DNA of 64,000 bases from Candidatus Omnitrophota bacterium (GTDB lineage: Bacteria > Omnitrophota > Gorgyraeia > JABMRN01 > RBG-13-46-9): assembly GCA_013203315.1 (NCBI GenBank), contig JABMQJ010000026.1, forward strand, positions 1-64,000, given 5' to 3'. A program made the translations under genes and the position numbers. The notes under the pieces are model-generated. The model saw nothing but the letters and a program-made list of their open reading frames with translations. It had not been told where the DNA came from and did not search any database. Within the stretch, counting starts at the first letter, position 1, and every line of letters begins with the position of its first letter. Shown here piece after piece: positions 40,246 to 64,000 of this stretch.

Positions 40246-41118
40246 ATGAAGCGGTATATAGATAAATTTAAAAACTATCTGACTGTTGAGAAAAACTATT
40301 CCCCGCACACGATAAAAAACTATTTTATCGATTTAAACGAGTTCTCCGAGTTTCTGTCCGAAAGAAGCGTGCAGGATGTTGATTATCTTACGGTAAGGAA
40401 GTTTCTTGCGCATCTCCGACAGAGGCAAATTTCCAAGCGTTCGGTAGCAAGAAAACTATCCAGTCTCAGGACATTTTTTAAATTCCTACAAAGAGACGGA
40501 TATACGAAGAATAATCCCGTTGCAAGCGTATCAACGCCTAAATTGGACAAAAAATTACCTGTCTTTCTTGATGAGAAAAGCGCCTTAAAGCTCGTAACGG
40601 CGCCTAACAAGAATACCTTCCAGAGCGCAAGGGACAGGGCCATACTCGAAACGCTTTATAGTACAGGCATAAGGGTGGGCGAACTGGTAGGCATCGATAT
40701 CGATGACGTGGATATTATAAGCGGTGTAGTCAAAGTGTTGGGAAAAGGCCGAAAAGAGCGTATTGCGCCTTGCGGGGATAAAGCAATAAGCATTATCCGC
40801 GAATATTTAAAGTATAGAAACGTAAAAATAAGCCAGGATAAAAAAGCGCTCTTTTTAAATAAATCAGGGAAACGCTTATCAGACAGAAGCGTAAGGCGTA
40901 TCGTTGATAAATATATAAAAGATGTCGGAACTAAAGAACATATTTCGCCGCATACATTGCGCCATTCTTTTGCGACACATCTTTTAAATAGGGGAGCGGA
41001 TCTTCGTAGCGTACAGGAACTTTTGGGGCACAAGAACCTTTCGACCACGCAGATCTATACGCACGTAACGATGGAGCGCCTTAAATCAGTGTACGATAAG
41101 GCGCATCCCCGGGCATAA
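40246..41118 (+). CDS. xerC: Chromosomal tyrosine recombinase XerC
   Basis: R...GKG.KER...HTLRHSFATH...LGH...TTQIY, ending HPRA; dprA-topA-xerC synteny. Confidence 0.9.
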   Translation: MKRYIDKFKNYLTVEKNYSPHTIKNYFIDLNEFSEFLSERSVQDVDYLTVRKFLAHLRQRQISKRSVARKLSSLRTFFKFLQRDGYTKNNPVASVSTPKLDKKLPVFLDEKSALKLVTAPNKNTFQSARDRAILETLYSTGIRVGELVGIDIDDVDIISGVVKVLGKGRKERIAPCGDKAISIIREYLKYRNVKISQDKKALFLNKSGKRLSDRSVRRIVDKYIKDVGTKEHISPHTLRHSFATHLLNRGADLRSVQELLGHKNLSTTQIYTHVTMERLKSVYDKAHPRA

Positions 41119-41130
41119 CGGACAGGACGC

Positions 41131-42396
41131 ATGACCATATACGATATATCTTTCTTCATGTTTTCCATAATATACCTGCCGTACCTTGTCGTAAAAGGCA
41201 AGGCGCATAAAGATTTTATGCAAAGATTCGGCAAATTATCCCCGGATTTTAAAAGGACGAGTTTACTGAAACCTGTGTGGATACACGCTGTAAGCGTAGG
41301 CGAAGTCCTGGCTGTTAAAAATTTCGTGGAGAATTTTCAAAAAAGATTTCCGAAACAAAAAATAATTCTTTCCACAACCACAAGAACGGGAAACGCTGTA
41401 GCCGGAAAAGTATTGAATAGGGATGTTTTAAAATTCTATTTTCCACTGGATTTTAGTTTCGTTGTTAAGCGGGTGGTGGATTTCATTAACCCGTCTATTT
41501 TGATTATTATGGAAACCGAGATTTGGCCGAATCTCATTTTGGAGCTATCCAAAAGAAGGCTTCCCATCGTTCTGATAAACGGAAGGATTTCAGATAAGTC
41601 GTTTAAGGGGTATCGAAAAATAAAATTTTTCTTCGGAAAAATACTCAAAAAAATAAATTTATTTTGCATGCAAACAACCGAAAGCGCCGAAAGAATAAAA
41701 GCCCTGGGCGCGGCCCCATCAGGCGTCAGGACAACGGGAAATATGAAGTTTGACGTACGCGAGCTTTCACAGCAGGAGAAACTCATGCCAAATCTTGAAT
41801 TATCCGGCAAGCTTATTATTGCCGGTAGCACGCATGCAGGTGAGGAAGAAATCGTATTAGAGGTATATAAAGAGCTTTTAGAAGCTTCAGACAGCCTCCA
41901 GCTTCTCATAGCGCCGCGGCACATAGATAGAGCCGAAGCAATAAAGAAAAAGCTGGAACAATATGGATTCGAGGGTATATTAATGTCGCAGATTGAAAAG
42001 GGCGCACGCAAGGCTCTTTCAAAAAAAACAATTCTTATTCTGGATACGCTCGGGGAATTAAAACATCTTTATAGCCTGGCAACGATTGTTTTTATGGGGG
42101 GAAGCCTCATAAAAAGAGGCGGGCATAATATAATAGAACCGGCAATATCGGGAAAACCCATCGTGTTCGGGCCTTACATGTTTAATTTTAAGGATATGGC
42201 AAGATCTTTTCTTGAAAATAACGCTGCCTTAGAAGTTAAAAATAAAAGGGCGTTAAAAGAAACATTGCAATTATTACTAAAAGACGAGAATAGGAGAATC
42301 GCGTTAGGACGTAACGCGAAAGGTTTAATAGACAAAAGTAGGGGCGCTACGGAAAGAAACATAGATGAGGTTGCGCTCCTTTTAGAAAAACGATAA
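41131..42396 (+). CDS. waaA: Kdo transferase
   Basis: WIHAVSVGE, ETEIWPN, GSTH.GEE, APRH and GGHN.IEPA motifs. Confidence 0.95.
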   Translation: MTIYDISFFMFSIIYLPYLVVKGKAHKDFMQRFGKLSPDFKRTSLLKPVWIHAVSVGEVLAVKNFVENFQKRFPKQKIILSTTTRTGNAVAGKVLNRDVLKFYFPLDFSFVVKRVVDFINPSILIIMETEIWPNLILELSKRRLPIVLINGRISDKSFKGYRKIKFFFGKILKKINLFCMQTTESAERIKALGAAPSGVRTTGNMKFDVRELSQQEKLMPNLELSGKLIIAGSTHAGEEEIVLEVYKELLEASDSLQLLIAPRHIDRAEAIKKKLEQYGFEGILMSQIEKGARKALSKKTILILDTLGELKHLYSLATIVFMGGSLIKRGGHNIIEPAISGKPIVFGPYMFNFKDMARSFLENNAALEVKNKRALKETLQLLLKDENRRIALGRNAKGLIDKSRGATERNIDEVALLLEKR

Positions 42397-42417
42397 TTTT
42401 AGGAAGGCGGTTATTAT

Positions 42418-42879
42418 ATGAAGGTAAAAGATATAATGACGAAGGATGTTATAAAAATCAGCCCTTCAATCGGTATACGCGAGATCTACAATATTTTTCG
42501 CGAAAAAAATGTAGGCGGAGTACCGGTTGTAGATAACGATAACAAACTGCTTGGCCTCATCACGAAGACAGAGCTTCTTGATGTCCTGATTCCCGATTAC
42601 TTCGGCATGGTGACCGATTTTCTTTTTATCGATGATTTCGGAGCACTTGAAGAAAAACTCGAATCCCTGCCGTCTTTAGAGCTTTTTATAGCCGAAGACC
42701 TTATGATAAGCGGCCTTATCAGCATAAAAGAAAATGCCTCGTTAATGAAGGCGCCAGTTTTGATGAATAAATATAACATAAGAAGATTGCCCGTTGTGGA
42801 CGCTGACAATAGGCTCGTAGGCATTGTCACGAGAATGGATGTCTGCGACGCGTTATTCAACGGGAAGGGGCGGCACTAA
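42418..42879 (+). CDS. CBS-pair domain protein
   Basis: KVKDIMT, PVVD...LGLIT and RRLPVVD...VGIVT motifs. Confidence 0.9.
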   Translation: MKVKDIMTKDVIKISPSIGIREIYNIFREKNVGGVPVVDNDNKLLGLITKTELLDVLIPDYFGMVTDFLFIDDFGALEEKLESLPSLELFIAEDLMISGLISIKENASLMKAPVLMNKYNIRRLPVVDADNRLVGIVTRMDVCDALFNGKGRH

Positions 42880-44150
42880 TGGCTAACTACATCGTTGCAA
42901 TATCGATATTTGCGGTTACTTTTTATTTTATTATTTCCGGAAAACTTGATAGAACCATCGCCAGCTTTGCAGGCGCCCTGGCCATGATCGGCGCCGGAAT
43001 AACCCTTGGATTTTATTCGCAAGAAGAGGCGTTTCACGCGATAGATTTCAATATGATGGGCCTTCTCTTAGGAATGATGATTATCGTAAGCGTATGCAAA
43101 AAAACAGGCTTTTTTTCATATGTAGCGATAAAAGCAGCTAAGGCATCCGGCGGCTCACCGCTTCGCCTTATGATAATGATGGGTTGTATCACAGCCTTTC
43201 TTTCGATGGCCCTAGACAACGTAACGACGATAATTCTCGTTATCCCAATTACCATACTTATATGCGACATTCTCGGCATAAGCCCGCTTCCTATAATTAT
43301 GTCCGAAATAATCCTCTCAAACATAGGCGGCACCGGTACCATGATCGGGGATCCGCCGAACATGATGATCGCCTCAAGCGCTAATTTTTCTTTTACGGAT
43401 TTCTTAGTTCATCTTTTACCCATTACTCTTCTTGCTATGGTCATAAGCCTTGTTGCGCTTGCTTTCATATTCAGAAAACAAATGATACATCCGTCAGTAG
43501 ACTTTAGCCCGATTTCACAGATAAACGAACGGGCCGCCATACGTGACGAAAAAAGTTTACGCAAAACAGTTTTTTCGCTTATTATCGTATTTGCGCTTTT
43601 CATACTGCAGAAGCAATTACACCTTCACCATTCTTTCATAGCGCTTTTAGGCGCCGGCATTGTTCTCATTCTGGTACGGCCGAATATCGAAGAAATAATG
43701 AAGGATATACACTGGCCGATACTGGCTTTCTTTGCGTCTTTGTTTGTCTTAATAGGCGGACTCGAGAAGACCGGCTTACTGAACTTAATAGCCGAACAGA
43801 TAAGCAGGATAGCCAATGCAAATTATAATCTTGCAAAGATTTCGATTCTTTGGGTTTCGGCGTGTTTCGCCTCGCTCGTGGATCGCGTTCCTTTCACCAC
43901 CGCGATGATACCCATAATAAAACAAGTGGGTGTGCTCGGGTTTAACATTGATTCCCTGTGGTGGGTTCTTGCCCTAGGTGTCGGGTTCGGTGGAAGCGGA
44001 ACTCCCATAGGCTCTGTTGTTGGCGTAGTGGGCTTGGCCATGAGCGAAAAAACAAGCACCCCGATAGATTTCAAGATATGGTTTAAAACGGCAACAGTTG
44101 TTACGGTGATTACGTTAATTCTTGTAACCCTTTTAATAGGGATCATATAG
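42879..44150 (+). CDS. ArsB/NhaD (ion transporter superfamily) permease
   Basis: About 11 TM helices; LDNVTT and SNIGG.GT.IGDPPN motifs. Confidence 0.88.
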   Translation: MANYIVAISIFAVTFYFIISGKLDRTIASFAGALAMIGAGITLGFYSQEEAFHAIDFNMMGLLLGMMIIVSVCKKTGFFSYVAIKAAKASGGSPLRLMIMMGCITAFLSMALDNVTTIILVIPITILICDILGISPLPIIMSEIILSNIGGTGTMIGDPPNMMIASSANFSFTDFLVHLLPITLLAMVISLVALAFIFRKQMIHPSVDFSPISQINERAAIRDEKSLRKTVFSLIIVFALFILQKQLHLHHSFIALLGAGIVLILVRPNIEEIMKDIHWPILAFFASLFVLIGGLEKTGLLNLIAEQISRIANANYNLAKISILWVSACFASLVDRVPFTTAMIPIIKQVGVLGFNIDSLWWVLALGVGFGGSGTPIGSVVGVVGLAMSEKTSTPIDFKIWFKTATVVTVITLILVTLLIGII

Positions 44151-53083: not shown

Positions 53084-54100
53084 ATGCGCATACTGCTGAC
53101 AAGAACAGACAGAATAGGCGATGTAGTTTTATCAACGCCGGCAATTAAAGCGGTGCGCGATAAATATCCCGAAGCGCATATCGCGTTTATGGTAAGGCCA
53201 TACGCGAAAGATATTGTCGACGGTAACCCATACCTTGACGAAGTAATAATCTACGATAAATACGGTAAGCATAAAAGCATTTTGAGCACGATTTTGTTCG
53301 CGCTTCGGCTTAAGAAAAAGAAGTTCGATAAAGCCTTTATGCTGCACCCGACAAACCGCGTTCACTTAGTTGCCTACCTTGCCGGCATCCCGGAGAGAAT
53401 AGGCTTTGATAGGAAAATGCCTTTTCTTCTTACGAAAAAAGTTCCGCACATAAAGCAGGAAGGTAAAAAGCACGAGTTAGAATATACCCTCGACCTTCTG
53501 GCATCTATAGGTATAGAGGCTAAAGATAAAGAACTTTTCGTACCGGTACACGAAAATGATATCGAAAAGGTTGAAAAACTTTTAACTGAACACCATGTCG
53601 GTAGCGATATTCCATTAATTGCCGTGAACCCGGGCGCCAGCTGTCCGTCCAAGAGGTGGAAGCCTGAAAATTTCTCCGAAGTTTGCGATAATTTAGCAAG
53701 TAAATACAAAGCAAGGATACTGATCGTATCTGACCAGGCAAGCAAAGAGTTTGCGGACAAAGTGGTAAGCGGCATGAAGTACGAACCGGTCAACTTGGCG
53801 GGCAGGACCACTGTAGGCGAGTTGGCAGCCTTACTTTCAAAGTGCAAACTCTTCATATCTAACGATTCCGGCCCGGTTCACATCGCCTGCGCTGTCGAAA
53901 CGCCGGTTATCTCCATTTTTGGCCGAAAAGACCCGGGTCTTTCACCCAAAAGGTGGGGCCCGACAGCCGAAAAAAGCGCAACATTCCACAAAAACGTCGG
54001 CTGCGACCCATGCCTTGCCCACAACTGCAAAATCAACTTCAAATGCCTCGAAGCTATTACCTCGGTCGAAGTCCTCTCCGCCGCCGAAAAGCTTTTATAA
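53084..54100 (+). CDS. GT9 family glycosyltransferase
   Basis: DRIGDVVLSTP, NPGASCPSKRW, NDSGPVH and RWGP motifs. Confidence 0.88.
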   Translation: MRILLTRTDRIGDVVLSTPAIKAVRDKYPEAHIAFMVRPYAKDIVDGNPYLDEVIIYDKYGKHKSILSTILFALRLKKKKFDKAFMLHPTNRVHLVAYLAGIPERIGFDRKMPFLLTKKVPHIKQEGKKHELEYTLDLLASIGIEAKDKELFVPVHENDIEKVEKLLTEHHVGSDIPLIAVNPGASCPSKRWKPENFSEVCDNLASKYKARILIVSDQASKEFADKVVSGMKYEPVNLAGRTTVGELAALLSKCKLFISNDSGPVHIACAVETPVISIFGRKDPGLSPKRWGPTAEKSATFHKNVGCDPCLAHNCKINFKCLEAITSVEVLSAAEKLL

Positions 54101-54119
54101 GAAGCAAGAGACGCAATTC

Positions 54120-54588
54120 CTTTCCCCACGAAAATTTTTACTTCACATAAAAGGGGTAACCGGGAGACAAGGCAGTCCCGGCGCAGCGCCTCATAAGATG
54201 TGCCATAGTCAAAAGTACCTCATCCCATCGTTCCGATGGTATTCGGCACTTTTGACTGAAACTGCGCCGGGACTGCCTTGTCTCCCGGTTACCCATTAAG
54301 GGGCTCCTTCTTTACTAATAAACTAAGAGCTTGATGCTTACTTATTCAAATAGAAGGAGCCTCTTTTATCGGAATGAGAGGGTATTGGCGAAAGCGGCTT
54401 TTTTGCGGTCTTGTAGGAGATCCTTTCTTTCCATAATCGCCTTGGACCGTGTCCATCTAGTTATTGCTATATGGACACGGTCCAAGGCTTATATAGCTTA
54501 CTACAATTTGTTGAAGAAGAAAGAGCTCCGTCGTTAGCGCCAAGCCGCACTCGCCAATACCCTCTCATTCCGTAAGGTTTGGGGAAAG
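54120..54588. repeat. Intergenic element of nested inverted repeats (candidate structured ncRNA or MITE-like cluster)
   Basis: Perfect IRs: 54154-186/54262-294 (33 bp), 54207-216/54248-257 (10 bp), 54302-311/54352-361 (10 bp), 54370-391/54551-572 (22 bp), 54439-456/54471-488 (18 bp). Closing pair 54120-128/54580-588 (9 bp). Confidence 0.9.
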
Positions 54589-54599
54589 CGAAAAAGGGG

Positions 54600-54627
54600 T
54601 TGAATAATGCGGCTGGGTCATTATAAT
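54600..54627 (+). promoter_or_regulatory. Putative sigma70 promoter of polX (probably leaderless mRNA)
   Basis: TTGAAT (54600-05), 16-nt spacer, TATAAT (54622-27); ATG 7 nt downstream with no SD. Confidence 0.6.
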
Positions 54628-54634
54628 TGATAGT

Positions 54635-56350
54635 ATGAAGAATCTAGAGATCGCGGAAATATTTAATAACATGGCCGATATACTCGAGATAAAGGGCGAG
54701 AACCCTTTTCGCATAAGGGCGTACAGGAAAGCTGCCCAGAATATTGAGGGTTTGAGTGAAGATATTGCGAAGATCGCCCGTGAAAAGAAGCTGGAGGACC
54801 TGCCGGGGATAGGTAAGGACCTTGCCGGAAAGATGGAAGAGTATATTGCTACAAGCAAAATTGAGGCTTATGAAAAATTGAAGAAAAACGTCTCGAAACC
54901 GGTCCTGGAACTTATGGACATACCCGGCGTAGGCCCTAAGACGGCCATGGTTTTATGCGATAAGTTAAAGGTAAAAAGCATTAGGGATCTAAAAAAGAAG
55001 GCCTGCGAGGGAGAGATAAAAGGCATTCCCGGCATTAAAGAAAAAACGATCACGAATATATTGCGGGGTATAGATTTCTTAAGAAAGTCAGAGGGAAGGA
55101 CACTTTTGGGGCAGGCTATTAAGATATCAGAAGAGATTATTGCCCGCCTCAGGAAATTACCGGAAGTAAAGAGAATCGAACCCGCAGGCAGCTTAAGGAG
55201 AAAGAGAGACACGGTAAGAGACATAGATATTCTCATAACCTCCGGCAACCCGCGCAAGGTAATGGATGTTTTTACGCGCCTGCCGGAAGTAAGAGACGTC
55301 CTGGCCGACGGCCCCACCAAGTCGAGTATAATTACAAAGGGCGAAGTTCAGGTGGATGTAAGGGTTGTTAAGCCGTCCAGCTTCGGCTCGGCGCTTTGCT
55401 ATCTTACCGGCTCGAAAAGTCATAATATCAGGCTACGAAAAATGGCGGCGCAAAAAGGCCTTAAAATAAACGAATACGGCGTTTTTAATATAAAAACAAA
55501 CAAAAGAGTAGCAGGCGCAGAAGAAAAAGACGTTTACAAAACACTTGATCTTCCGTGGATACCGCCTGAGATACGGGAGGATAGGGGCGAGATAGAAGCG
55601 GCCATGAAGAATAAGTTGCCGCGTCTTCTGGAATTGAAAGATATAAAAGGCGATCTTCACGCGCACTCGGATAGTTCAGACGGCGTGCTTAGCTTCGAAA
55701 AAATAGCTGCCATATGCCAAAAACGCGGATATGAATATGTTGTCATAAGCGACCACTCCAAGACCTTACGCGTTGCGGGTGGGCTAAGCGAAAAGGACCT
55801 GTTTGCAAACATTAAAAAGGTACAAAAACTCAATAAGAGATTTAAGAAAATACGCCTTTTGATAGGTTCGGAAGTGGACATTACTAGCGACGGCGAAATG
55901 GATTACGAAAACGATATCTTAAAGGAACTGGATTTTGTAATCGCTGCAATCCACTCAGGGTTCAAGCAGTCGAAAGCGGTCCAGACAAAACGCATATTGA
56001 AAGCGATGGACAATAAATACGTTAATATGATAGCGCACCCCACAGGTCGCTTGATGGGCGTAAGGGAAGGCTATGAAATAGATCTGGAGAGAATCCTAAA
56101 GCAAGCCAAGGCGACAAATACAGCGCTTGAGATAAACGCCTATCCCGAAAGGCTGGACTTAAATGACGCAGGCGTCGGCCGCGCGAAAGAATTTGGCGTT
56201 ATGATTGGTATAGCTACTGATGCCCACGTTGAAGACCAATTTGAAAATATGCGTTTTGGCGTAAGTGTTGCCCGCCGCGGATGGCTAGAAAAGAAAGATG
56301 TTTTAAATGCGCATGGCCTGGAAAATTTCCTGAAAAAGATTAAAAAATAA
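54635..56350 (+). CDS. polX: DNA polymerase X with PHP domain
   Basis: GENPFRIRAY, GSLRR...RDIDIL, QVDVR and TGSK.HN motifs; PHP motifs DLHAHS, DHS, HPTGR and TDAH. Confidence 0.95.
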   Translation: MKNLEIAEIFNNMADILEIKGENPFRIRAYRKAAQNIEGLSEDIAKIAREKKLEDLPGIGKDLAGKMEEYIATSKIEAYEKLKKNVSKPVLELMDIPGVGPKTAMVLCDKLKVKSIRDLKKKACEGEIKGIPGIKEKTITNILRGIDFLRKSEGRTLLGQAIKISEEIIARLRKLPEVKRIEPAGSLRRKRDTVRDIDILITSGNPRKVMDVFTRLPEVRDVLADGPTKSSIITKGEVQVDVRVVKPSSFGSALCYLTGSKSHNIRLRKMAAQKGLKINEYGVFNIKTNKRVAGAEEKDVYKTLDLPWIPPEIREDRGEIEAAMKNKLPRLLELKDIKGDLHAHSDSSDGVLSFEKIAAICQKRGYEYVVISDHSKTLRVAGGLSEKDLFANIKKVQKLNKRFKKIRLLIGSEVDITSDGEMDYENDILKELDFVIAAIHSGFKQSKAVQTKRILKAMDNKYVNMIAHPTGRLMGVREGYEIDLERILKQAKATNTALEINAYPERLDLNDAGVGRAKEFGVMIGIATDAHVEDQFENMRFGVSVARRGWLEKKDVLNAHGLENFLKKIKK

Positions 56351-56351
56351 A

Positions 56352-57149
56352 ATGAAAATTATTCTTATTCTGCTCTTATTGTTTTCAAGTATTTTCAGTC
56401 AAGCCCCTGTCCTGGCAGTAGACATGGATGATATTGTCCCGATTTCAGCCGAGAAAGAAAAGAAAATGGGAGCCGCTATATCTAAGCAGGTAGAAAAACA
56501 ATTCGATGAAGTTGACGATCCGCTTGTCCAAAAGCGCTTCGAGGAAATAGGGGCAAAGCTCGCCAAGGTTTGCGACAGGCACGAATTCGTATACCACTTT
56601 AAGGTTCTGAAGGCAAAAGAGGGCCCCAAGGAGAGGTATTACAACGCCTTTACGCTTCCCGGAGGGTATATTTATATGTTCGAGCCTTTATTAGAAGCGC
56701 TCGAAACCGATGATAAAATCGCCGCTGTTACGGCTCACGAGATCGGGCACATTTGCGGCCGACATGTTGTAAAAAGGCTACAGTCATCCCTTGGCGTTAA
56801 CCTTCTCATGATTTTAGCCGTTGTTGCTGCGCGCGATGGCCGGACAGTAGCGCACACAAATGAGGCCATAACTCAGCTTATGATGTCGTATTCGAGGGAA
56901 GATGAATTTGAGGCGGACAGATTATCCGTAGAATACGTTAAGAGAGCAGGGTTCGATCCGGAGGGCGTTTTAGAAAGTCTTCAAAGGCTAAAGGAATTAA
57001 GAAAAAAGGGGCCTGATCGGAGATACATAGACTACAGGAGCCACCCCTATTTGTCGGAGCGAATTGCCGCTGCGAGGAAAGAAATTAAAGGTTATGCGGA
57101 TTTCGATAGTTATATAAACTTACCGCACAAAGAAAAGACTTTCGATTAG
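56352..57149 (+). CDS. Exported M48 family zinc metallopeptidase
   Basis: Signal peptide, NAF.LPGG, HEIGH, YSREDE.EAD and SHP....RI. Confidence 0.9.
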   Translation: MKIILILLLLFSSIFSQAPVLAVDMDDIVPISAEKEKKMGAAISKQVEKQFDEVDDPLVQKRFEEIGAKLAKVCDRHEFVYHFKVLKAKEGPKERYYNAFTLPGGYIYMFEPLLEALETDDKIAAVTAHEIGHICGRHVVKRLQSSLGVNLLMILAVVAARDGRTVAHTNEAITQLMMSYSREDEFEADRLSVEYVKRAGFDPEGVLESLQRLKELRKKGPDRRYIDYRSHPYLSERIAAARKEIKGYADFDSYINLPHKEKTFD

Positions 57150-57161
57150 AGTTTCGGCAGG

Positions 57162-57584
57162 CTAAAATATCCCCAGGATCTTCCCGCGTATTATCTCGAC
57201 ATTTTTGAAGCGAAGCGCGTTAAAAGACGTGCCGTCAAACATGCCTTCAAATTGGATTGTTTTTCCTTTTCTGATGCTTTTGGCGGTTTCGAGGCCTATC
57301 GTAAGCACTAGTTCGTATGTCTCACCTTTGAAGCGTTTCGTGAGATACACTACAGCGTCATTTTTGGTACCGGCTACCTGCAAAACGTCTTTCACTCTTC
57401 CTTTTCCAACCGCAACTTGCCCGTTATATTGACGAACGGCGTCTCTTCTCTGAATAGAGGTCAGCTTTGTGTTGGTGAGGTCTTTTAATATCGTATTGAC
57501 GTTTAAGGGTTTTGCGTAAGTATATATAGGAGAAAACGCGATAGAGAGCGCGAGAATTAATACAAGGATTTTTGTAATCTTCAT
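57162..57584 (-). CDS. Small exported hypothetical protein, possibly OB-fold
   Basis: Signal peptide (MKITKILVLILALSIAFSPIYTYA); GGAGG SD; G.V.DV...KG..I.FEG beta pattern; fills the gap between + strand genes. Confidence 0.75.
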   Translation of the reverse strand: MKITKILVLILALSIAFSPIYTYAKPLNVNTILKDLTNTKLTSIQRRDAVRQYNGQVAVGKGRVKDVLQVAGTKNDAVVYLTKRFKGETYELVLTIGLETAKSIRKGKTIQFEGMFDGTSFNALRFKNVEIIRGKILGIF

Positions 57585-57593
57585 TTAGGCCTC

Positions 57594-57613
57594 CCTGCCT
57601 GCCGGTAGGCAAG
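57594..57613. repeat. 20-bp near-palindrome CCTGCCTGCCGGTAGGCAAG (REP-like)
   Basis: Self-complementary with two imperfect positions (a G/T pair and a mismatch on each strand); abuts the SD of the minus-strand gene. Confidence 0.7.
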
Positions 57614-57649
57614 CTTTATATTTTTTTGGCTAGTTTTATAGACCATTCA

Positions 57650-57678
57650 AATATACCATAAAATAGACAAAAATACAA
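57650..57678 (-). promoter_or_regulatory. Putative sigma70 promoter of the minus-strand gene
   Basis: On the minus strand: TTGTAT, 17-nt spacer ending TGG, then TATATT. Confidence 0.5.
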
Positions 57679-57690
57679 ACAAAACAGGCC

Positions 57691-57719
57691 TTGACTTACA
57701 AGTTGGGCCGTGGTAAAAA
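57691..57719 (+). promoter_or_regulatory. Putative sigma70 promoter of the helicase gene (divergent pair)
   Basis: TTGACT (57691-96), 17-nt spacer ending TGG, then TAAAAA. Confidence 0.5.
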
Positions 57720-57730
57720 TAAATGAGGTT

Positions 57731-59746
57731 ATGAAATACATAATTAAAAAAGACATACCGCGTAAGTTTAAAAATATTGACTATAAAAAAGCATTAAATC
57801 CGGAACAACTCAAAGTTGTTACAGGAGCCGAGGGTCCGAGCCTTGTGCTCGCCGGGGCGGGCAGCGGAAAAACAAGGACCCTTATTTACCGCGTAGCCTA
57901 TCTCCTCGAAAAAGGCATCTCACCGCAGAATATTTTACTCGTTACATTTACGAATAAAGCCGCAAAAAACATGGAGGAGAGAATTGAGGGGCTTTTGGAA
58001 GCCAAGCCCAAGCGACTGTGGAGTGGTACCTTCCATCACATCGGCAACCGGTCCTTGCGCCTTTTTACGAAAGACCTGGGATACAGGCAAAACTACAATA
58101 TTCTTGACCAAGAAGATTCCGTTGATTTGCTCAAGGTTTGTATAAAAAACCTGAATATCAAAGTTCACGAAGAGCGTTTTCCACGCCCGAAGGTCCTGCG
58201 TTCCATAATAAGTTATTCCGTAAATTCCGACAAAACTATAGAGGAGACCCTGGAAAGGCAGCACCCCTATTTCCTGCGTTTTCACGATACGATACAAAAA
58301 ATTAAAGCAGAATATGATGCTAAGAAACTCTCATCCAGCAACATGGATTACGATGATCTTCTCGTAAAATGGTTATGGCTCCTCAAGAACGTAGAAAGGG
58401 CCAGGGAGAGATTTTCGAAACAATTTCACTATATTCTCGTAGATGAATATCAGGATACTAACAGGCTTCAATCGGCTATTATAAAGGAGCTTTCCGGATT
58501 ACATGGAAACGTTCTGGCGGTCGGAGATGACGCCCAGGCCATATATTCTTTCAGGGGGGCGGACGTGTCAAATATACTGCATTTTCCCAAAGAATACCCC
58601 GATGCGAAAATATTTAAACTGGAAAGCAATTACCGCTCGTCTCCTGAGATCCTGGATCTCGCAAACGACTCCATATCGTATAACAGGAATCAATTTGAAA
58701 AGCACCTAAGGACTGTTAACGAAAACGGCTCGAAACCCGCCCTTATAGAGGTAAGGGATATGCGCGCCCAATCAAATTTTGTAGCCCAGCGCATACTGGA
58801 ATTGCGTGACGAAGGGGTGGAGCTAAAAGATATGGCCGTTCTTTTCAGGGCGCACTACCAGGCGGCGGAGCTGGAAATGGAGTTCACAAAAAGAGGTATT
58901 CCTTTTATTGTCCGCGGCGGAATCCGTTTTTTTGAACAGGCGCATATTAAAGACGTTTTAGCGCATGCCAAGATTTTGACAAATCCTTTTGATGAGATCT
59001 CGTGGATTAGGGCGCTTTCCATCCAATCCGGTATCGGCACCGCTTACGCGGGCCGCGTTTTTAATGAGTTTTTAAGCTTAGGTGACTTGAATAAAATGAC
59101 AGGCAAAGAATTCGGAAGGTTCCTTCCGGAAAGATCCCGAAAGGGCCTTAAGAATTTCAAGAAAATAATGAATTCCATAGTAAATGAGGGATTGGAAAAA
59201 AGGCCTGACGAAGTAATCAGGCGAATTATTGATTCAGGCTACGCCGACTACGTAATGACGCATTTCGACAATGCCAAAGACAGGGTAGACGATTTGCATG
59301 AGCTTGTAAACTTCGCGCACGATTACAAGAATATAAAAACGCTTTTGCATGATATTACGCTGCGGGAGCCGTTCAAGGGTGAAACCATCACCGGATCACC
59401 TTCACACGATGAATATATCGTGCTTTCTACGATCCACCAGGCAAAAGGGCTGGAGTGGAAGGCTGTTTTTATGGTAGGGCTTTGCGAAGGGCAATTTCCA
59501 CACCCAAAGGCCAAGGAGGATCCGCTACAGCTGGAAGAAGAAAGAAGGCTGTTTTATGTCGCGGCGACAAGAACAAAGAGCGACTTATTCCTGTTGCACC
59601 CGATCACGAGGTATGATTACCAGATGGGGACAGTTATTTCACGTAAGTCATTGTTTTTAGAGGAGTTAAGTCCAGAACTCTATGATCATTGGGAGATAGA
59701 GGAAGAATATGCTGAGAATTGCGTTATAGATCTTGACAGGGGCTAA
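57731..59746 (+). CDS. UvrD/PcrA/Rep family SF1 DNA helicase
   Basis: AGAGSGKT, TFTNKAA, VDEYQD, VGDDAQAIY.FRGA, STIHQAKGLE and EERRLFYVA.TR motifs. The track start 57710 lies inside the predicted promoter. Confidence 0.93.
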   Translation: MKYIIKKDIPRKFKNIDYKKALNPEQLKVVTGAEGPSLVLAGAGSGKTRTLIYRVAYLLEKGISPQNILLVTFTNKAAKNMEERIEGLLEAKPKRLWSGTFHHIGNRSLRLFTKDLGYRQNYNILDQEDSVDLLKVCIKNLNIKVHEERFPRPKVLRSIISYSVNSDKTIEETLERQHPYFLRFHDTIQKIKAEYDAKKLSSSNMDYDDLLVKWLWLLKNVERARERFSKQFHYILVDEYQDTNRLQSAIIKELSGLHGNVLAVGDDAQAIYSFRGADVSNILHFPKEYPDAKIFKLESNYRSSPEILDLANDSISYNRNQFEKHLRTVNENGSKPALIEVRDMRAQSNFVAQRILELRDEGVELKDMAVLFRAHYQAAELEMEFTKRGIPFIVRGGIRFFEQAHIKDVLAHAKILTNPFDEISWIRALSIQSGIGTAYAGRVFNEFLSLGDLNKMTGKEFGRFLPERSRKGLKNFKKIMNSIVNEGLEKRPDEVIRRIIDSGYADYVMTHFDNAKDRVDDLHELVNFAHDYKNIKTLLHDITLREPFKGETITGSPSHDEYIVLSTIHQAKGLEWKAVFMVGLCEGQFPHPKAKEDPLQLEEERRLFYVAATRTKSDLFLLHPITRYDYQMGTVISRKSLFLEELSPELYDHWEIEEEYAENCVIDLDRG

Positions 59747-59823: not shown

Positions 59824-59976
59824 CTATGTAGAGTTAAATAAAGTGCTTGAATGAAGACAACGAGCAAAACGTAAGATTTTCGACAGGCATTTTTTTTGTC
59901 AACTAACTAAAAGCTTTAAAAAAGTATTACCTATATGTATGATGCAAGTTTTACGCAAGTACTGGAGGAACCCAGA

Positions 59977-60567
59977 ATGAAACATTTCACGGACGAGCAA
60001 TTGATAAAGAAAGCGAAGCGTAAAGATAAGAGCGCTTTTAGCGAGGTCATTGATAGGTATAGCGATAAGATGCTCGGGTATCTCTATCGATACGTGGGTG
60101 ACTATCAGAAAGCCGAAGACCTGACGGTTGAAACATTTTTCAACGCGTATAAAAGGCTGAAAACCTACACGGAAATGGGCAAATTCAGTTCGTGGCTTTA
60201 CATGATAGCGACAAACTGTGCACGGAAAGAGTTACAAAAAAGGGCCCGCTCCAAGGAGGTTTCGCTTGAAAAGCCTTTGGGCGTAGGGGCGAAGGAAGAT
60301 ATAAACTTAGGCGACTTGATAGCCGATGAAAAAACACGTCCCGATTACAACGCCAGGCAAACCGAACTTAAAGAGCTGATTTACAGCGCGATATCAAAGC
60401 TGGATAAAAAGTATAAAGACGTTTTGCTATTTTGCGATGTCGAAGGTTTATCTTATGAAGAGGCAGCCAAGATTTTGAAGTGCAATCCGATAACAATCGG
60501 CACCAGAGTAAGAAGGGCACGAATCATGCTATACAATACACTGCGAAGATATGGTTATGAATTCTAA
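59977..60567 (+). CDS. ECF-type sigma-70 factor
   Basis: Region 2 (AEDLT.ETF, FSSWLY.IA.N) and region 4 (EGLSYEE.A.IL.....T...R..RAR); GGAGG lies 8 nt before ATG 59977. Confidence 0.92.
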   Translation: MKHFTDEQLIKKAKRKDKSAFSEVIDRYSDKMLGYLYRYVGDYQKAEDLTVETFFNAYKRLKTYTEMGKFSSWLYMIATNCARKELQKRARSKEVSLEKPLGVGAKEDINLGDLIADEKTRPDYNARQTELKELIYSAISKLDKKYKDVLLFCDVEGLSYEEAAKILKCNPITIGTRVRRARIMLYNTLRRYGYEF

Positions 60568-60781
60568 AACAAGGTGTCTATACCCTGTATATGGGGGCGT
60601 CCCCATAAAGATGATTTTTTTTGAAATAAAGTGAAATATTCCGGGATTTAGGGGATTATACATAATAGAAGCTTAAAAAAGCTTGGCAAAAATCTACGTG
60701 TTTTGAGTTTCGTATCTACGTCTTTTTTTATGTCCTGAAACTTAGGACATTTAAAAAGGGATAAATAAGGAGATCTACGTG

Positions 60782-63700
60782 ATGAATGCTTGGCGTCCTT
60801 GGCAGTCTTGGCGAGTTTGGCAAGAACGCAAACTAAATAAACGCGAAAGTAATTATAATAATATAGATGCTAATGGTCTATCCGGAGGCGGTGTGTCTTC
60901 GGACGATTCTATGGAAGGCATGGCAGTTTGGACAAAACGCCATGCCCTTTTAATTAAAACTTTAGCATGGGTTTTAGTTTTTGCTTTTATAGTTTATGAC
61001 ATAACATGGGCGCAGGGCGGCGAGCCGCTTAGCCTTGGCGCTAAGGCGAGCGCCGTAAAAGTAAACGGCAGAGTTCACGAAGAAGGCATCAGGATACCGC
61101 GCGACGCCGGCTGGGCTCACGAATCGCATATCAACGGCAGCGACGAATTTATATTTAACATACAAGACCCGCACGCAAGCCTCGATGCACAGCACTCAAT
61201 CGTAAGAATCCTCGAGTCACTAAGCTCAAACTACGACCTGAACCTAATCGCGTTAGAAGGCGCCGAAGGCCCGATAGACATATCGTTTTTACGGACCTTC
61301 CCGGACGCTGAGATACGGAAGCACGCGGCCGAATATCTAATGCGCGAAGGCCGCATGTCAGCGGGTGAATTCTTCGCAATTGTATCCGAAAAACCGATAA
61401 AGCTCTACGGCATAGAAAATAGTCGCCTGTATCTCGAAAACGTGGAAGTATTTACGAAATTCATGGAATCGAGGCAAGGCTGCATAGACCACGTAAAAGG
61501 CGCTTTAAAAGCCCTAGAGAAATTCGCGCCAAAAGTTTACTCAAAAGACCTTCAAAAGTTATTGAAAGCGTCCAGGCTCCACGAGGAAGACAAGCTCGCA
61601 TTCGTTAAGTACTGGGAAGTTATTACGAAAATCGCAGAAGAACGCAATGTTGAACTTGGGGATTTTGCGGGCCTTCCGCAACTACTGGCAGCAATTGAAA
61701 TCGAGAAGGAAATCGATACAAAAGAGCTCAACAAGGAAAGAAAGCAGCTTCTTGACGAGCTTACAAATACGCTCACAAAGCCAGAGCTCGAAGACCTCGT
61801 AAAAACATCTCTCGATTACAAAACCGGCAAAGTATCCCAAAGCCAGTTTCACAAGTACGTGATGCGCCTTGCGCTGGATAAAGGCCTTTTCCTTCAGCAA
61901 TACTCCAACCTGGCAACGTTTAGCCGATACATCGCCGCTTACGAAGACATAAACTTCATGCAGCTTTTCCTCGAGATAGAGCAAGTTGAAGCCCGTCTCA
62001 GGGAGATCTTATTCCTGAGCGATGAAGAAAGGGAGCTCTATAACTTCACAAAAGCAGTCCGCACCACAAAAAAGCTATTCGATATCGCAGTAGGCAATAG
62101 CGACTACGAATTTATCCTGGAAAGCAAGAAATACTTCAATACAGATAACCTGCGCGAATTTATTAACAAAACCTACAAAAAATATGCCCTGATCAATGAA
62201 GATGAGTATGACGTAAATCGCGTATTCGAAAAACTAAGTGATGGCACCGAGCTTTATAACGTAGCCCAAAAGCGTAATAATGCCATGATTTCAAACACCC
62301 TAAGAGCCATGAGGATTAACAAGGAATACGCTGCCGCTCTCATAACCGGTGGTTTCCACTCAAAAGGCTTAGCAGAACTCATAAGAAAAAAAGAGCTTTC
62401 ATACCTGATTGTAATGCCGAAATACGAAGGCGAAAACAAAAGGCCGTATATAGCCGTTCTTACACAGAAACGCCAACCTTACGAGGAACTTCTTGAAACC
62501 GGCGAATACATGCTAGCAGTAAGGGCTTTCTGTTGGGACAGCGATCCGCGGAACATGGCAAGGGTCATAATGCCGATCGCAATATTGGCAGAACGCGGGC
62601 CTCTATCATTTGAAGATCTTGTTACGCAACACTATGAACAATTTTTACCTGTTTTTGAATACTATCAGAAGGCAAGAGAACAGTGGGGTGGCGATGGCTT
62701 GAGAACGCCGGTTGCGGAAAAAGACTTCTGCGCTATATACGGAGCAGAGGCGGATGCAAGCGGTAAACCGATTAGGGGCGAAGATGGCAAAATTCAGATA
62801 AAAACAAAACCGGTTGTAGTTAGAACATCGGTAGCGAACACACCAGTTTTTGTCGTGCGCCTCAAAATAAACGGTGAGAGTTTTGTTGGCTGCTTCGCTG
62901 AAAAAGACGGAAATTTTGAGTACCTCAGCCTGGATAGCTCAATGGCTAAAAAAGCAATAAGGAGCGCGACACGAAAAACCAGGAGATTAGCTTCGGAAAG
63001 AAAAGAAATTACCGCCGCAGTAGCGCGAGACGTTTCAATTGACGGGGCTGAAGGCATATTAGAAGGGCTAGGATCGCTATATATAGAGGAAAGCGCACTT
63101 AATACAGACCAAATAGCAGAGCGTGATAAGGCGCTTGAACTTATTGGAGCAGCAGCCAGTCGGCTTAATGGCCAAGAGGTAACCGTTAATAGGGCTGTTC
63201 GAGCCTTTGCAGGCGCAGCAGGTGCAGCAGGATATAGGATAGACCGAAAGAAGATCGGAGAAGACCTTCAGAATGTTATTGCAGCAGAAATAAAAAAGAA
63301 ATTAACACCGGAAGCTGCAGTCATACCGGATTTAGATAACAGGCTTAGCGAAAAGATAGAAAGATCCTTAAAGGAGCACCCCGAACAGAGAAATCCGGAA
63401 TCCCTAGCAAGTTTAAAACAAAAGCTGCTGGAATTATACAAAAAGATTTCGTCTTCTAAAGATATATTAGGTAACCCGGAGAAACAGGAGAAACTAGCGG
63501 CATTAATTGAATATACATTTGACAAGCTTTTAGATCAAGACGTAGATGATCTGAAGCTCCCGTATACTCCTCACGGCGCAAAACACTCGCTTGACGTTGC
63601 TAATTATATGGAAAGCCTGGTAGAAAATACCCCCGGTCTTAAAGAAAGGCTGGAAGATCTCTACGGCGAGAATTATAAAGAAATAGTTTTTTTGCTTGGA

Positions 63701-64000
63701 CTTCTTCATGACATAGGATATGCCGGATTGGAAGGCGCTAAGAAACAATTTGGAAAAGATAAAGTCGAAAAAGGTTATCATGCTGACTTAGGTGCGGCTA
63801 TGGCAAGGGATGACTTATCCGCTATTTTGCGGGAACTTTTTGGCATGGAAAGAGATGGGTCTCGGGAAGACAAAAGCGCGTTAGACGATTTCATAGATGC
63901 GATATTGCTGCACGGCGCGGATAAACGAAGTGTAGAAGAAGAAGGTCCTGAAGGTTCCGGCGAGCATAAGCATACACCGGCAAGCGAAACTAATAACCCT
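60782..64000 (+). CDS. Large exported multidomain protein (at least 1073 aa, 3'-truncated; absent from the ORF track): signal peptide, TraB/Tiki/EreA-like domain, HD domain
   Basis: Hand translation of frame 2 is stop-free from GTG 60779/ATG 60782 (TAAGGAG at 60766) to 64000. It contains KRHALLIKTLAWVLVFAFIVYDITWA-QG, IQDPH 61160, LEG 61253, RNNAM 62273, GGFH 62348, PYTPHGAKHS 63560 and LLHDIGY 63701. Starts at 60893, 60911 or 60920 are also possible. Confidence 0.9.
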   Translation, partial: MNAWRPWQSWRVWQERKLNKRESNYNNIDANGLSGGGVSSDDSMEGMAVWTKRHALLIKTLAWVLVFAFIVYDITWAQGGEPLSLGAKASAVKVNGRVHEEGIRIPRDAGWAHESHINGSDEFIFNIQDPHASLDAQHSIVRILESLSSNYDLNLIALEGAEGPIDISFLRTFPDAEIRKHAAEYLMREGRMSAGEFFAIVSEKPIKLYGIENSRLYLENVEVFTKFMESRQGCIDHVKGALKALEKFAPKVYSKDLQKLLKASRLHEEDKLAFVKYWEVITKIAEERNVELGDFAGLPQLLAAIEIEKEIDTKELNKERKQLLDELTNTLTKPELEDLVKTSLDYKTGKVSQSQFHKYVMRLALDKGLFLQQYSNLATFSRYIAAYEDINFMQLFLEIEQVEARLREILFLSDEERELYNFTKAVRTTKKLFDIAVGNSDYEFILESKKYFNTDNLREFINKTYKKYALINEDEYDVNRVFEKLSDGTELYNVAQKRNNAMISNTLRAMRINKEYAAALITGGFHSKGLAELIRKKELSYLIVMPKYEGENKRPYIAVLTQKRQPYEELLETGEYMLAVRAFCWDSDPRNMARVIMPIAILAERGPLSFEDLVTQHYEQFLPVFEYYQKAREQWGGDGLRTPVAEKDFCAIYGAEADASGKPIRGEDGKIQIKTKPVVVRTSVANTPVFVVRLKINGESFVGCFAEKDGNFEYLSLDSSMAKKAIRSATRKTRRLASERKEITAAVARDVSIDGAEGILEGLGSLYIEESALNTDQIAERDKALELIGAAASRLNGQEVTVNRAVRAFAGAAGAAGYRIDRKKIGEDLQNVIAAEIKKKLTPEAAVIPDLDNRLSEKIERSLKEHPEQRNPESLASLKQKLLELYKKISSSKDILGNPEKQEKLAALIEYTFDKLLDQDVDDLKLPYTPHGAKHSLDVANYMESLVENTPGLKERLEDLYGENYKEIVFLLGLLHDIGYAGLEGAKKQFGKDKVEKGYHADLGAAMARDDLSAILRELFGMERDGSREDKSALDDFIDAILLHGADKRSVEEEGPEGSGEHKHTPASETNNP
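60790..60826 (+). repeat. 9-bp period tandem repeat TTGGC-N4 x4 (encodes WRPWQSWRVWQE)
   Basis: t-tggcgtcct-tggcagtct-tggcgagtt-tggcaagaa. Confidence 0.75.

Follow-up and report, generated by a model that had tools for sequence, protein, structure and literature searches.

Introduction

The Correia and Rickettsia palindromic elements are bacterial MITEs whose transcripts fold into hairpins along their whole length. Other palindromic units of bacterial genomes are built differently: REP units are 20-40 nt long and are tied to the transposase type called RAYT, E. coli BIMEs group such imperfect palindromes, repeated many times, with characteristic linkers, and integron attC sites are imperfect hairpins with R''/R' core sites and extrahelical bases that lie beside an integron integrase.

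One review (PMC10969869, Figure 2) describes Coxiella QMITE2 as a core of 113-145 bp between TIRs of 23-29 bp, the transcript of which has a free energy of about -113. Its authors characterize MITEs as typically AT-rich, state that the direct repeats flanking them wane with time, and give a range of 1-22 copies per genome for MITEAba12. In section 3.3 of that review (PMC10969869), the BOX, RUP and SPRITE repeats of pneumococci are said to bunch and to insert into each other. A second article (Delihas 2011, PMC3184786) presents REP units as small, G+C-rich stem-loops of which a genome has several hundred copies, and credits clusters of them (REP/BIME) with effects on mRNA stability and an association with recombination.

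An earlier note on a 64-kb stretch of Omnitrophota DNA (here called the window, meaning the whole stretch that was analyzed) drew attention to an intergenic element of about 470 nt upstream of polX. It offered three alternatives for this element: a large structured noncoding RNA, a cluster of small RNAs processed by RNase III, or a cluster of DNA cruciforms or non-autonomous elements. Here we report that the last of these fits best and that the two RNA alternatives found no specific support. The spacer may hold three unrelated palindromic DNA elements, nested one beside another, rather than one designed RNA.

Results

The spacer ahead of polX (54101-54634, 534 nt) is the largest in the window, ahead of one of 211 nt, and the median spacer is 6 nt. 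The polX spacer opens at the stop codon of the last gene of a co-directional LPS-core operon that lies upstream (Table 1); the preceding genes of this operon encode LpxK, an LpxL-like acyltransferase, GT4 and GT9 enzymes and a polysaccharide deacetylase, according to Pfam. The protein encoded by polX is 74% identical to that of the closest relative, locus L001, which was its best match among representative genomes. Both flanking genes are intact and keep their frame as far as the spacer. Between them, at 54151-54572, three long palindromes lie back to back, with perfect stems of 33, 22 and 18 bp. The 64-kb window has three perfect hairpins with stems of 16 bp or more (loop <=250), and all of them fall inside this one spacer; the loci of relatives contain 21 such hairpins in 1,086,037 nt.

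Table 1. Features of the spacer between the LPS-core operon and polX, in window coordinates.
Feature	Coordinates	Strand	Description
Glycosyltransferase family 9 gene, last of LPS-core operon	53084..54100	+	Pfam Glyco_transf_9, E = 2.6e-40
Outer inverted repeat, left half (CTTTCCCCA)	54120..54128		9 bp, near chance
Arm 1, 147-nt whole-length palindrome	54151..54297		33-bp perfect outer stem, 20-nt/4-nt asymmetric bubble, inner hairpin
Arm 1 inner hairpin	54207..54257		24-nt arms, 83% complementary, 3-nt loop
Arm 2, 68-nt hairpin	54298..54365		14-bp stem, one G-T
Arm 3, 203-nt whole-length palindrome	54370..54572		Outer stem of 22 perfect bp + 7 bp, decayed middle, inner hairpin
Arm 3 inner hairpin	54439..54488		22-nt arms, 95% complementary, 18 bp perfect, 6-nt loop
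Outer inverted repeat, right half (TGGGGAAAG)	54580..54588		9 bp, near chance
Sigma-70-like promoter, TTGAAT-16-TATAAT	54600..54627	+	10/12 consensus matches, 7 nt 5' of polX ATG
polX, family X DNA polymerase with PHP domain	54635..56350	+	Context, outside the element; Pfam DNA_pol_B_thumb, HHH_8, PHP

Every stem that the earlier note had assigned to three back-to-back arms is present. The outer stem of arm 1 (54154-54186 with 54262-54294, or 36 nt at 97% when extended) encloses 75 nt of interior between its halves, and its pairing (33/33) exceeds that of the inner hairpin (20/24; Fisher p = 0.027). The stem of arm 2 joins 54298-54311 to 54352-54365. In arm 3, the perfect 22 bp (54370-54391 with 54551-54572) are followed by two mismatches and then seven pairs, giving an outer inverted repeat of 31 nt at 94% overall, the halves of which enclose 141-159 nt. 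Arms 1 and 3 do have in common the plan of stem, bubble and hairpin that had been pointed out, and, as had also been claimed, not their sequence; the arms are mutually unrelated. Decay within the arms is patchy rather than uniform, with perfect blocks beside blocks rich in indels, and this combination of perfect ends and a weaker interior is the TIR-plus-core pattern. GC content is 0.55 in arm 1 and 0.48 in arm 3, and 0.32-0.43 in other spacers.

RNA folding of the plus strand of 54101-54634 gave -264.2 kcal/mol, compared with -150.6 +/- 6.2 for 100 dinucleotide shuffles, none of which did as well (0/100; z = -18.45). The fold density of the spacer, -0.495 kcal/mol/nt, compares with -0.13 to -0.29 for five other spacers of at least 80 nt. 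The minus strand folded to -266.3 kcal/mol (z = -19.46), and each arm folds comparably on the plus and minus strands (-101.9 and -108.3 kcal/mol, respectively, for arm 1; -111.3 and -112.5 for arm 3). The long stems of 33, 22 and 18 bp are wholly Watson-Crick, and among some 160-170 pairs there are 10 G-U pairs on the plus strand and 7-8 on the minus strand, with no strand bias. The Rfam check that had been proposed found no family at the gathering score anywhere in the window. At E <=10 there was no 6S RNA and the hits were generic plant and animal miRNA-precursor hairpins, the best at 30.9 bits where the gathering score is 64; this relaxed search also gave a 13.6-bit Moco match. The arms are symmetrical at the level of DNA, and the evidence favours DNA palindromes over an RNA gene, since both strands fold equally, wobble pairs show no bias and no Rfam family matches, and also because of four results given below: the short polX spacers of relatives, the synteny breakpoint, the excision register of arm 1, and the multi-copy palindromes of relatives.

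The earlier note regarded the three arms as a structure closed by a 9-bp outer stem. That repeat exists, and closure by it is near chance: stems of at least 9 bp closed 227 of 5000 flank shuffles (4.5%) and 15 of 1683 placements of the same geometry elsewhere in the window (0.9%). The arms themselves are solid, and the "closed" architecture, marginally supported, is not established. An 11-mer from the 33-nt polX leader of the closest relative occurs once in the window, inverted, at 54116-54126, where it overlaps the left outer half, and a 7-nt direct version of it lies within the right outer half. The score of the 11-mer was reached by 5 of 2000 shuffles; the observation was made post hoc and the sequence is purine-rich. 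Separately, the 9-mer AAAAGGGGT is present in direct orientation at 54149 and 54592, where about 0.5 such pairs would be estimated by chance in 534 nt.

As previously described, the element ends just before a polX promoter candidate. This sigma-70-like site is a consensus match only, with one found in the region and 0.9 expected; if used, it would make the polX mRNA leaderless or nearly so. Ahead of the arms, no independent promoter-like site was found on either strand. The proximity of the arms to polX looks like coincidence, as had been suspected: across 66 loci, the gap ahead of polX has a median of 15 nt, with more than 300 nt in five of them, and a conserved polX leader or regulator was rejected on this basis. 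In one relative (L002), a 68-nt polX spacer contains a single 13-bp palindrome.

We found no partner gene for the arms. Pfam scanning of 38 ORF translations from the window (omitting a 5,848-aa ORF at 235-17781, a 70-aa ORF at 8-220 and an open-ended ORF from 60779) identified no transposase, RAYT-type or other, no reverse transcriptase, no TnpB/IscB-type nuclease and no phage integrase, in line with the absence of a nearby transposase noted before. The sole tyrosine recombinase of the window (40246-41118) follows DprA and TopA and is 13 kb from the arms. An integron attC array was rejected, given this distance and stems that are perfect and have no single-base bulges; nor do the arm termini fit what we take to be the attC core-site consensus. 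The judgment that the element has no convincing ORF held as well, in that the two spacer ORFs (52 and 68 aa) have neither a Pfam match nor a database relative. Peptide probes from a 57-aa frame of arm 1 and a 71-aa frame across arms 2 and 3 recovered no candidates from a set of 5.8 billion proteins, and exhaustive phmmer comparison of the 71-aa frame with 1.84 billion representatives gave 0 matches, negatives that are weak because they depend on gene callers calling such ORFs, the window's own frames being unrecovered too. The window contains no tRNA or tmRNA. A replication origin or terminus at this position was also rejected: GC skew is positive in all 16 of the 4-kb bins, and genes on both sides are on the plus strand.

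Within the 64-kb window, no arm has a second copy. The blastn search for copies, which the earlier note had put forward as a way to tell repeats from RNA, likewise gave no match in 80 related loci (1.09 Mb, all from MAG, SAG or isolate-bin assemblies), and no homologue of the arms was found in these loci, including the spacers upstream of polX in 66 of them. Plasmid and phage collections yielded no copy, and not even inverted-repeat ends were shared at E <=0.01. In the closest relative, the spacer ahead of polX is 33 nt. Gene order in this relative is kept for polX-M48-uvrD and for the region corresponding to 41131-44150 of the window, and the roughly 10 kb between these blocks differ: the window has the LPS-core operon, and the relative has genes for RrnaAD (rRNA adenine dimethylase), PdxA, two rotamase/SurA-like proteins, a short-chain dehydrogenase, a ketoacyl synthase and TauE. 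The arm cluster sits at the right-hand breakpoint of this synteny.

Repeated palindromes do occur in two other loci of the set. L049 has a palindrome of ~180 nt in two copies (12519-12700 and 6080-6259) that are 91% identical and fold to -112 and -96 kcal/mol, and L079 has a hairpin of ~80 nt in two copies (11727-11807 and 16007-16079). Like the arms, these are intergenic, whole-length palindromes (73-182 nt) in genomes of similar uncultured lineages, and their folding energies of -0.52 to -0.66 kcal/mol/nt compare with -0.55 for arm 3 and -0.69 for arm 1. They differ from the arms in having no sequence in common with them, in occurring one per spacer rather than as a triple, and in being demonstrably repeated, whereas the arms are single in the sequences searched. 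In a limited literature search, we found no published account of such hairpins in Omnitrophota.

For arms 2 and 3 and for the composite, the earlier statement that the element lacks a target-site duplication is correct: direct repeats around these, and around the inner hairpins, were not above chance, being equalled by at least 874 of ~985 random placements. Arm 1 departs from that statement weakly. A candidate insertion at 54157-54297 has AAGGGG in direct orientation on both sides, a repeat equalled by 68 of 993 random placements. Alternatively, the AAGGGG bracket could reflect a terminus common to arms 1 and 2. When 54157-54297 and one copy of AAGGGG were excised in silico, the stem of arm 2 gained four contiguous pairs in exact register; the present context gives a gain of 0, and 549 of 63,151 other left flanks (0.87%) equalled the four-pair gain. 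This excision register, an insertion trace that we found post hoc, supports arm 1 as a putative insertion.

Without arm 1, arm 2 is predicted to form an 18-bp stem between ATAAAA and TTTTAT, an arrangement of A-tract, stem and T-tract that, at the end of a long operon, resembles a bidirectional rho-independent terminator. Unlike such terminators, in which the loop is 3-8 nt, arm 2 has stem halves that are 40 nt apart; its stem is followed by only four T, and arms 1 and 3 have no T-run. An intrinsic terminator was rejected, as the arms do not combine a GC-rich stem, a short loop and a T-run. A terminator scan of 53900-54800 found no site at the level of an arm, just a 5-bp inner site at 54443-54455, and terminator-like sites in this genome are at background (33 vs 24.8 +/- 4.8; 24 vs 22.9 +/- 6.2).

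Discussion

Our data suggest, short of an even chance and yet ahead of every other account we considered, that the spacer is a nest of MITE/REP-like palindromic insertions that perhaps incidentally insulates the LPS-core operon from polX. Arm 2 would most likely be the original terminator-like hairpin that ended the LPS-core operon, and it is probably the oldest part of the cluster. Arms 1 (147 nt) and 3 (203 nt) would be MITE-like, non-autonomous hairpin elements, each with long TIRs and a partly palindromic core, that inserted on both flanks of arm 2, at a site where rearrangement has made the order of genes differ from that in the nearest relative. Because the genome is otherwise tightly packed, the spacer may have been one of few harmless places for insertion. 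Transcripts that run past the end of the operon would, incidentally, form three hairpins of extreme stability, which should block 3'-exonucleases and hinder read-through into polX, a gene that has its own promoter-like site downstream of them. Inferences, rather than observations, are the mobility of the elements, the sequence in which they inserted and whatever influence they have on transcription.

Several properties of the arms agree with those of bacterial MITEs. There are TIRs at both ends (perfect over 33 bp in arm 1 and 22 bp in arm 3, with 14 bp in arm 2), and the arms are small (68-203 nt) and have no internal transposase, the 52- and 68-aa ORFs being the only ones. Like QMITE2 and ERIC, they are intergenic, lack coding capacity and have transcripts that are predicted to form a single stable stem-loop; arms 1 and 3 come close to QMITE2-type MITEs in length, in folding energy (-102 to -112 kcal/mol) and in their TIRs of 31-36 nt. 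The arms also differ from bacterial MITEs, in that no second copy was found in the window, the 80 loci, plasmids or phages, no clear target-site duplication is apparent, and no autonomous IS with matching ends was detected among the 38 ORFs or in the plasmid and phage collections. Their GC content, at or above the genome mean, contrasts with the AT-richness of typical MITEs. The copy number of a MITE can be as low as one per genome, as with MITEAba12 in some hosts. Because this genome looks streamlined, an expanded MITE family is less likely and 534 noncoding nt are notable. The packing of several hairpin elements into one post-operon spacer is reminiscent of BIMEs and of BOX/RUP/SPRITE bunches. 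REP/BIME was rejected as an identity for the arms, which are 68-203 nt, mutually unrelated and not found repeated, so that back-to-back clustering is the only similarity.

A local origin would dispense with transposition altogether: template switching or fold-back errors during replication at a rearrangement breakpoint could have produced inverted duplications in place, and the hairpins would then be scars left when the LPS-core operon and polX were joined. The position of the cluster exactly at the right-hand breakpoint with respect to the closest relative speaks for such an origin, as do native leader sequence that seemingly lies in both orientations around the cluster (the 11-mer and its 7-nt version; 5 of 2000 shuffles), the lack of a convincing target duplication, and the failure to find another arm copy in the window, 80 loci, plasmids, phages or protein sets. 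We nevertheless think it unlikely, since three unrelated neighbouring palindromes require three events, patchy decay does not fit perfect duplication in one step followed by uniform decay, and the excision test on arm 1 fits a discrete insertion; moreover, arm GC contents of 0.55 and 0.48, above those of other spacers, indicate material unlike native spacer, and the 11-mer was noticed post hoc in purine-rich sequence. We rate as decidedly unlikely a lineage-specific structured RNA, made as the 3' end of the LPS operon or as a separate transcript, whether in the form of dsRNA rods (6S-like with a central bubble, or RNase III substrates that yield small RNAs) or of a three-helix RNA of ~470 nt. 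Extreme folding energy (z = -18.5), the retention of 534 noncoding nt despite a 6-nt median spacer, the stem-bubble-stem design common to arms 1 and 3, and a closing stem that is nominally unusual (0.9-4.5% of controls) would all suit an RNA, which, matching nothing in Rfam, would be new. However, the minus strand folds as well or better with no G-U excess on either strand, neither strand has a promoter-like site ahead of the arms, nothing comparable exists in the closest relative or before polX in 66 loci, and neither 6S nor any other Rfam family emerged even at E <=10. Perfect helices of 33 bp are also unusual among functional bacterial RNAs.

Below both of these we place, as improbable, a single-copy structure of ~470 nt, RNA or DNA, that belongs to no described family and has been selectively retained. 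As RNA, it may consist of three dsRNA rods that end the LPS-core operon and are processed or sensed as dsRNA, or it may be 6S-like; as DNA, it may act as an insulator or as a supercoiling-sensitive set of cruciforms controlling a leaderless polX. Assemblers and multiple-displacement amplification are, in addition, known to generate perfect inverted repeats in error, and the lineage is known mostly from MAG, SAG and isolate-bin assemblies (80 of 80 related loci), such that joins made by fold-back or chimerism during the assembly of metagenomic or single-cell data could in principle have created the arms. That explanation is very improbable here, given three differing palindromes in a row whose long, unique interiors (75 and 141-159 nt) have imperfect inner hairpins of their own, arms that copy nothing else in the window, and flanking genes that are both intact and in frame.

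If the spacer is indeed a nest of palindromic insertions, then the locus is ordinary in kind, consisting of small palindromic insertions lodged together in a spacer that tolerates them. Uptake of such elements would then extend even to a very compact Omnitrophota genome (median spacing of 6 nt in the window), and an operon-end hairpin at a rearrangement breakpoint would be a place where they accumulate. The locus further shows how little extreme folding energy says by itself about the presence of an RNA gene, as strand symmetry and absence from relatives point in the opposite direction. Should the cluster turn out instead to occur once per genome and to be conserved in close strains, it would represent a new large structured element, from a phylum whose RNA biology has hardly been studied by experiment.

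Palindromic arms in the spacer upstream of polX

On a crude gene map, the 534-nt spacer 5' of polX (54101-54634) is the largest in the window (runner-up 211 nt, median intergenic gap 6 nt), and it contains three back-to-back palindromic hairpins (arms 1, 2 and 3). Direct reading of the sequence and a repeat scan recovered every stem listed in the earlier note (see table). The plus strand folds as RNA at -264.2 kcal/mol, compared with -150.6 +/- 6.2 for shuffled sequences (z = -18.45; 0/100 shuffles equally good), a density of -0.495 kcal/mol/nt versus -0.13 to -0.29 in the five others that measure 80 nt or more. Perfect hairpins of 16 bp or longer number three in the 64-kb window, all of them within this spacer, and 21 in 1,086,037 nt of related loci. 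Fold score, hairpin counts, spacer size and fold density together indicate that the three arms are genuine and well past chance. Alignment of left halves with the reverse complements of right halves indicated that each arm is palindromic end to end and has decayed unevenly, with perfect blocks beside blocks rich in mismatches and indels (in arm 1, 33/33 outer versus 20/24 inner positions pair; Fisher p = 0.027).

The arms had also been described as closed by a 9-bp outer stem. The case for that stem is marginal: perfect flank complementarity of at least 9 bp turned up in 227 of 5000 shuffles that kept dinucleotide composition (4.5%) and, at other sites of the window, in 15 of 1683 placements with the same geometry (0.9%). 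Unlike the arms, the stem is not far beyond chance. An 11-mer from the polX leader of the closest relative, L001 (GGGAAAGGAAT, L001 9984-9994), occurs once in the window, inverted, at 54116-54126 within the left half of the closing stem, and 54582-54588 carries a 7-nt version in direct orientation; the match score was equalled by 5 of 2000 shuffles. These sequence matches suggest that native leader sequence, present in both orientations, makes up the closing stem.

Positions of features in the window and in related loci (L numbers)
Feature	Position	Details
Closing stem	54120-54128 / 54580-54588	9-bp outer inverted repeat
AAGGGG beside arm 1	54151-54156, 54298-54303	
Arm 1 outer stem	54154-54186 / 54262-54294	33 bp, perfect (repeat scan)
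Arm 1 inner hairpin	54207-54257	
Arm 2 stem	54298-54311 / 54352-54365	14 bp, one G-T (repeat scan)
Arm 3 outer stem	54370-54391 / 54551-54572	22 bp perfect, then 2 mismatches, 7 more pairs
Arm 3 inner hairpin	54439-54488	18 bp, perfect
Promoter-like site	54600-54627	TTGAAT-16-TATAAT
polX	54635-56350	then M48 peptidase, uvrD
Giant ORF	235-17781 (+)	about 5,848 aa
DNA-repair genes	23092-24279; 54635-59746	DinB-type (IMS family) polymerase, PHP-domain polX, uvrD
Tyrosine recombinase	40246-41118	after DprA and TopA
Minus-strand ORF	57162-57584 (-)	140 aa, no Pfam match
ECF-type sigma factor	59935-60567	Sigma70_r2/r4_2; then 211-nt spacer
Open-ended ORF	60779-64000	at least 1,074 aa; runs off window end
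L001 tandem palindromes	9373-9607	two, small, perfect, GC-rich
L001 runs of N	2090-2189, 18642-18741	100 nt each
L032 nested hairpin	12738-12841	104 nt
L049 repeated palindrome	12519-12700, 6080-6259	~180 nt; -112 and -96 kcal/mol
L049 third palindrome	4412-4576	165 nt, unrelated to the pair
L079 hairpins and elements	11727-11807, 16007-16079, 13173-13217, 7238-7408, 4072-4215	

Genomic context and synteny

The source is a Candidatus Omnitrophota bacterium, whose best PolX match among representative genomes (74%) is in L001 (CP070780.1, a 1.43-Mb chromosome); the next are mostly Omnitrophota, Nitrospirota or Thermodesulfovibrionia MAGs (50-60%). The window is very compactly coded, with about 40 genes, nearly all on the plus strand, and short in-frame direct repeats crowd the 5' region of the giant ORF and the DNA preceding it (1-2650). 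Each of the sixteen 4-kb bins has positive GC skew, which rules out a replication origin or terminus here. No link was found between the DNA-repair genes of the window and the hairpins.

Upstream, an LPS-core operon, long and co-directional (Kdo transferase, CBS protein, CitMHS transporter, LpxK, an LpxL-like acyltransferase, GT4/GT9 enzymes, a polysaccharide deacetylase and three GT9 genes), ends at 54100. The promoter proposed earlier for polX is present as a promoter-like site whose -10 hexamer ends 7 nt 5' of the ATG; no Shine-Dalgarno-like run was found between this hexamer and the ATG (54600-54637), and polX may here be translated from a leaderless mRNA.

In L001, polX has a GTG start and follows TauE after 33 nt, and the second-closest relative, L002, has a 68-nt spacer with one perfect 13-bp palindrome. 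Across the 66 loci with a callable upstream gene (among 68 in which 700 nt or more precede polX), the spacer has a median of 15 nt and exceeds 300 nt in 5, and a conserved polX leader was rejected on this median. The window and L001 are syntenic over polX-M48-uvrD and window 41131-44150. The ~10 kb between differs (in L001: RrnaAD, PdxA, two rotamase/SurA-like genes, short-chain dehydrogenase, ketoacyl synthase and TauE), and the element therefore lies on a rearrangement breakpoint. The tandem palindromes of L001 occupy the spacer after its ketoacyl-synthase gene.

Possible traces of insertion

The earlier note saw no target-site duplication, and in a scripted search the direct repeats flanking arms 2 and 3, either inner hairpin and the composite did not exceed chance. 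Arm 1 does have AAGGGG on both sides, but this pair was equalled by 68 of 993 random placements; shared termini offer an alternative account, because the second copy is arm 2's own terminus. When 54157-54297 and one AAGGGG were removed in silico, the arm 2 stem, which has no extension in its present context, lengthened to 18 bp by four Watson-Crick pairs, contiguous and exactly in register (a gain equalled by 549 of the other 63,151 left flanks, 0.87%), and the local MFE went from -28.7 to -33.6 kcal/mol. The reconstructed hairpin, with ATAAAA on one side and TTTTAT on the other, resembles a bidirectional terminator but has an oversized interior. This excision-register result, post hoc and modest, is the sole direct sign of history, and from sequence it modestly points to insertion.

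As the earlier note stated, no transposase is nearby: none was found, nor any reverse transcriptase or phage-type integrase, among 38 window ORFs scanned, a set that left out the giant and open-ended ORFs. The sole tyrosine recombinase found is, we presume from gene context, XerC/D-like. Peptide-probe searches with arm translations were negative, a weak result. Comparison with relatives, a step the note had proposed, was carried through for the window and fetched loci, and blastn with the element gave no match in 80 related loci, plasmids or phages.

Similar palindromes in relatives

Relatives carry repeated palindromes built like the arms. In L049, a MAG labelled Pseudomonadota, two copies of a whole-length palindrome (91% identity, within 7 kb) look like a clear MITE-like family. 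L079, an Omnitrophota MAG contig, has a long hairpin in each of several intergenic spacers, including two copies of a ~80-nt hairpin with a partial third at 495-520, and two TIR-bearing elements with identical ends, one of which (about 170 nt) lies directly 3' of polX. The L032 hairpin, which re-uses one ~14-nt unit in outer and inner stems, looks like a two-unit REP/BIME-like arrangement.

According to a 2024 review (PMC10969869), prokaryotic MITEs carry TIRs, along with direct repeats that fade over time, and give rise to transcripts that fold into stable stem-loops; in QMITE2 the TIRs measure 23-29 bp and the core 113-145 bp, and the free energy is about -113; BOX, RUP and SPRITE elements cluster and insert into each other; and MITEAba12 has 1 to 22 copies per genome. 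BIMEs (REP clusters) are described in Delihas 2011 (PMC3184786) as influencing mRNA stability, being associated with recombination and binding IHF, gyrase and Pol I.

Origin of the arms

A lineage-specific structured RNA, such as a 6S-like rod or RNase III substrate, is improbable. Folding is slightly more favorable on the minus strand (-266.3 kcal/mol, z = -19.46), the strands are equivalent arm by arm, and G-U pairs number 10 on the plus and 7-8 on the minus strand (of about 160-170 pairs). Selection for an RNA from one strand should leave G-U pairs tolerated there only, and the pattern seen is the one that palindromy at the DNA level produces. Neither strand has a promoter-like site ahead of the arms, and an Rfam search, which the earlier note had recommended, found nothing that reached gathering score across the entire window; up to E = 10 there were only generic long-hairpin miRNA precursor matches and a 13.6-bit Moco match. 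Local scars of the rearrangement, made by fold-back or template switch, are unlikely, and an assembly artefact is very unlikely.

We tentatively favor three unrelated palindromic elements of MITE/REP-like type, nested around an older hairpin at the end of the operon, on the synteny breakpoint. By analogy, the spacer palindromes behave like known small palindromic repeats, and they are candidate members of the MITE class, membership being unproven because copy number was seen only in the window and fetched loci, target duplications are unconvincing and no parent IS is known. Such a nest could possibly serve, incidentally, as a barrier at the 3' end or as an insulator in front of the promoter that polX has for itself.
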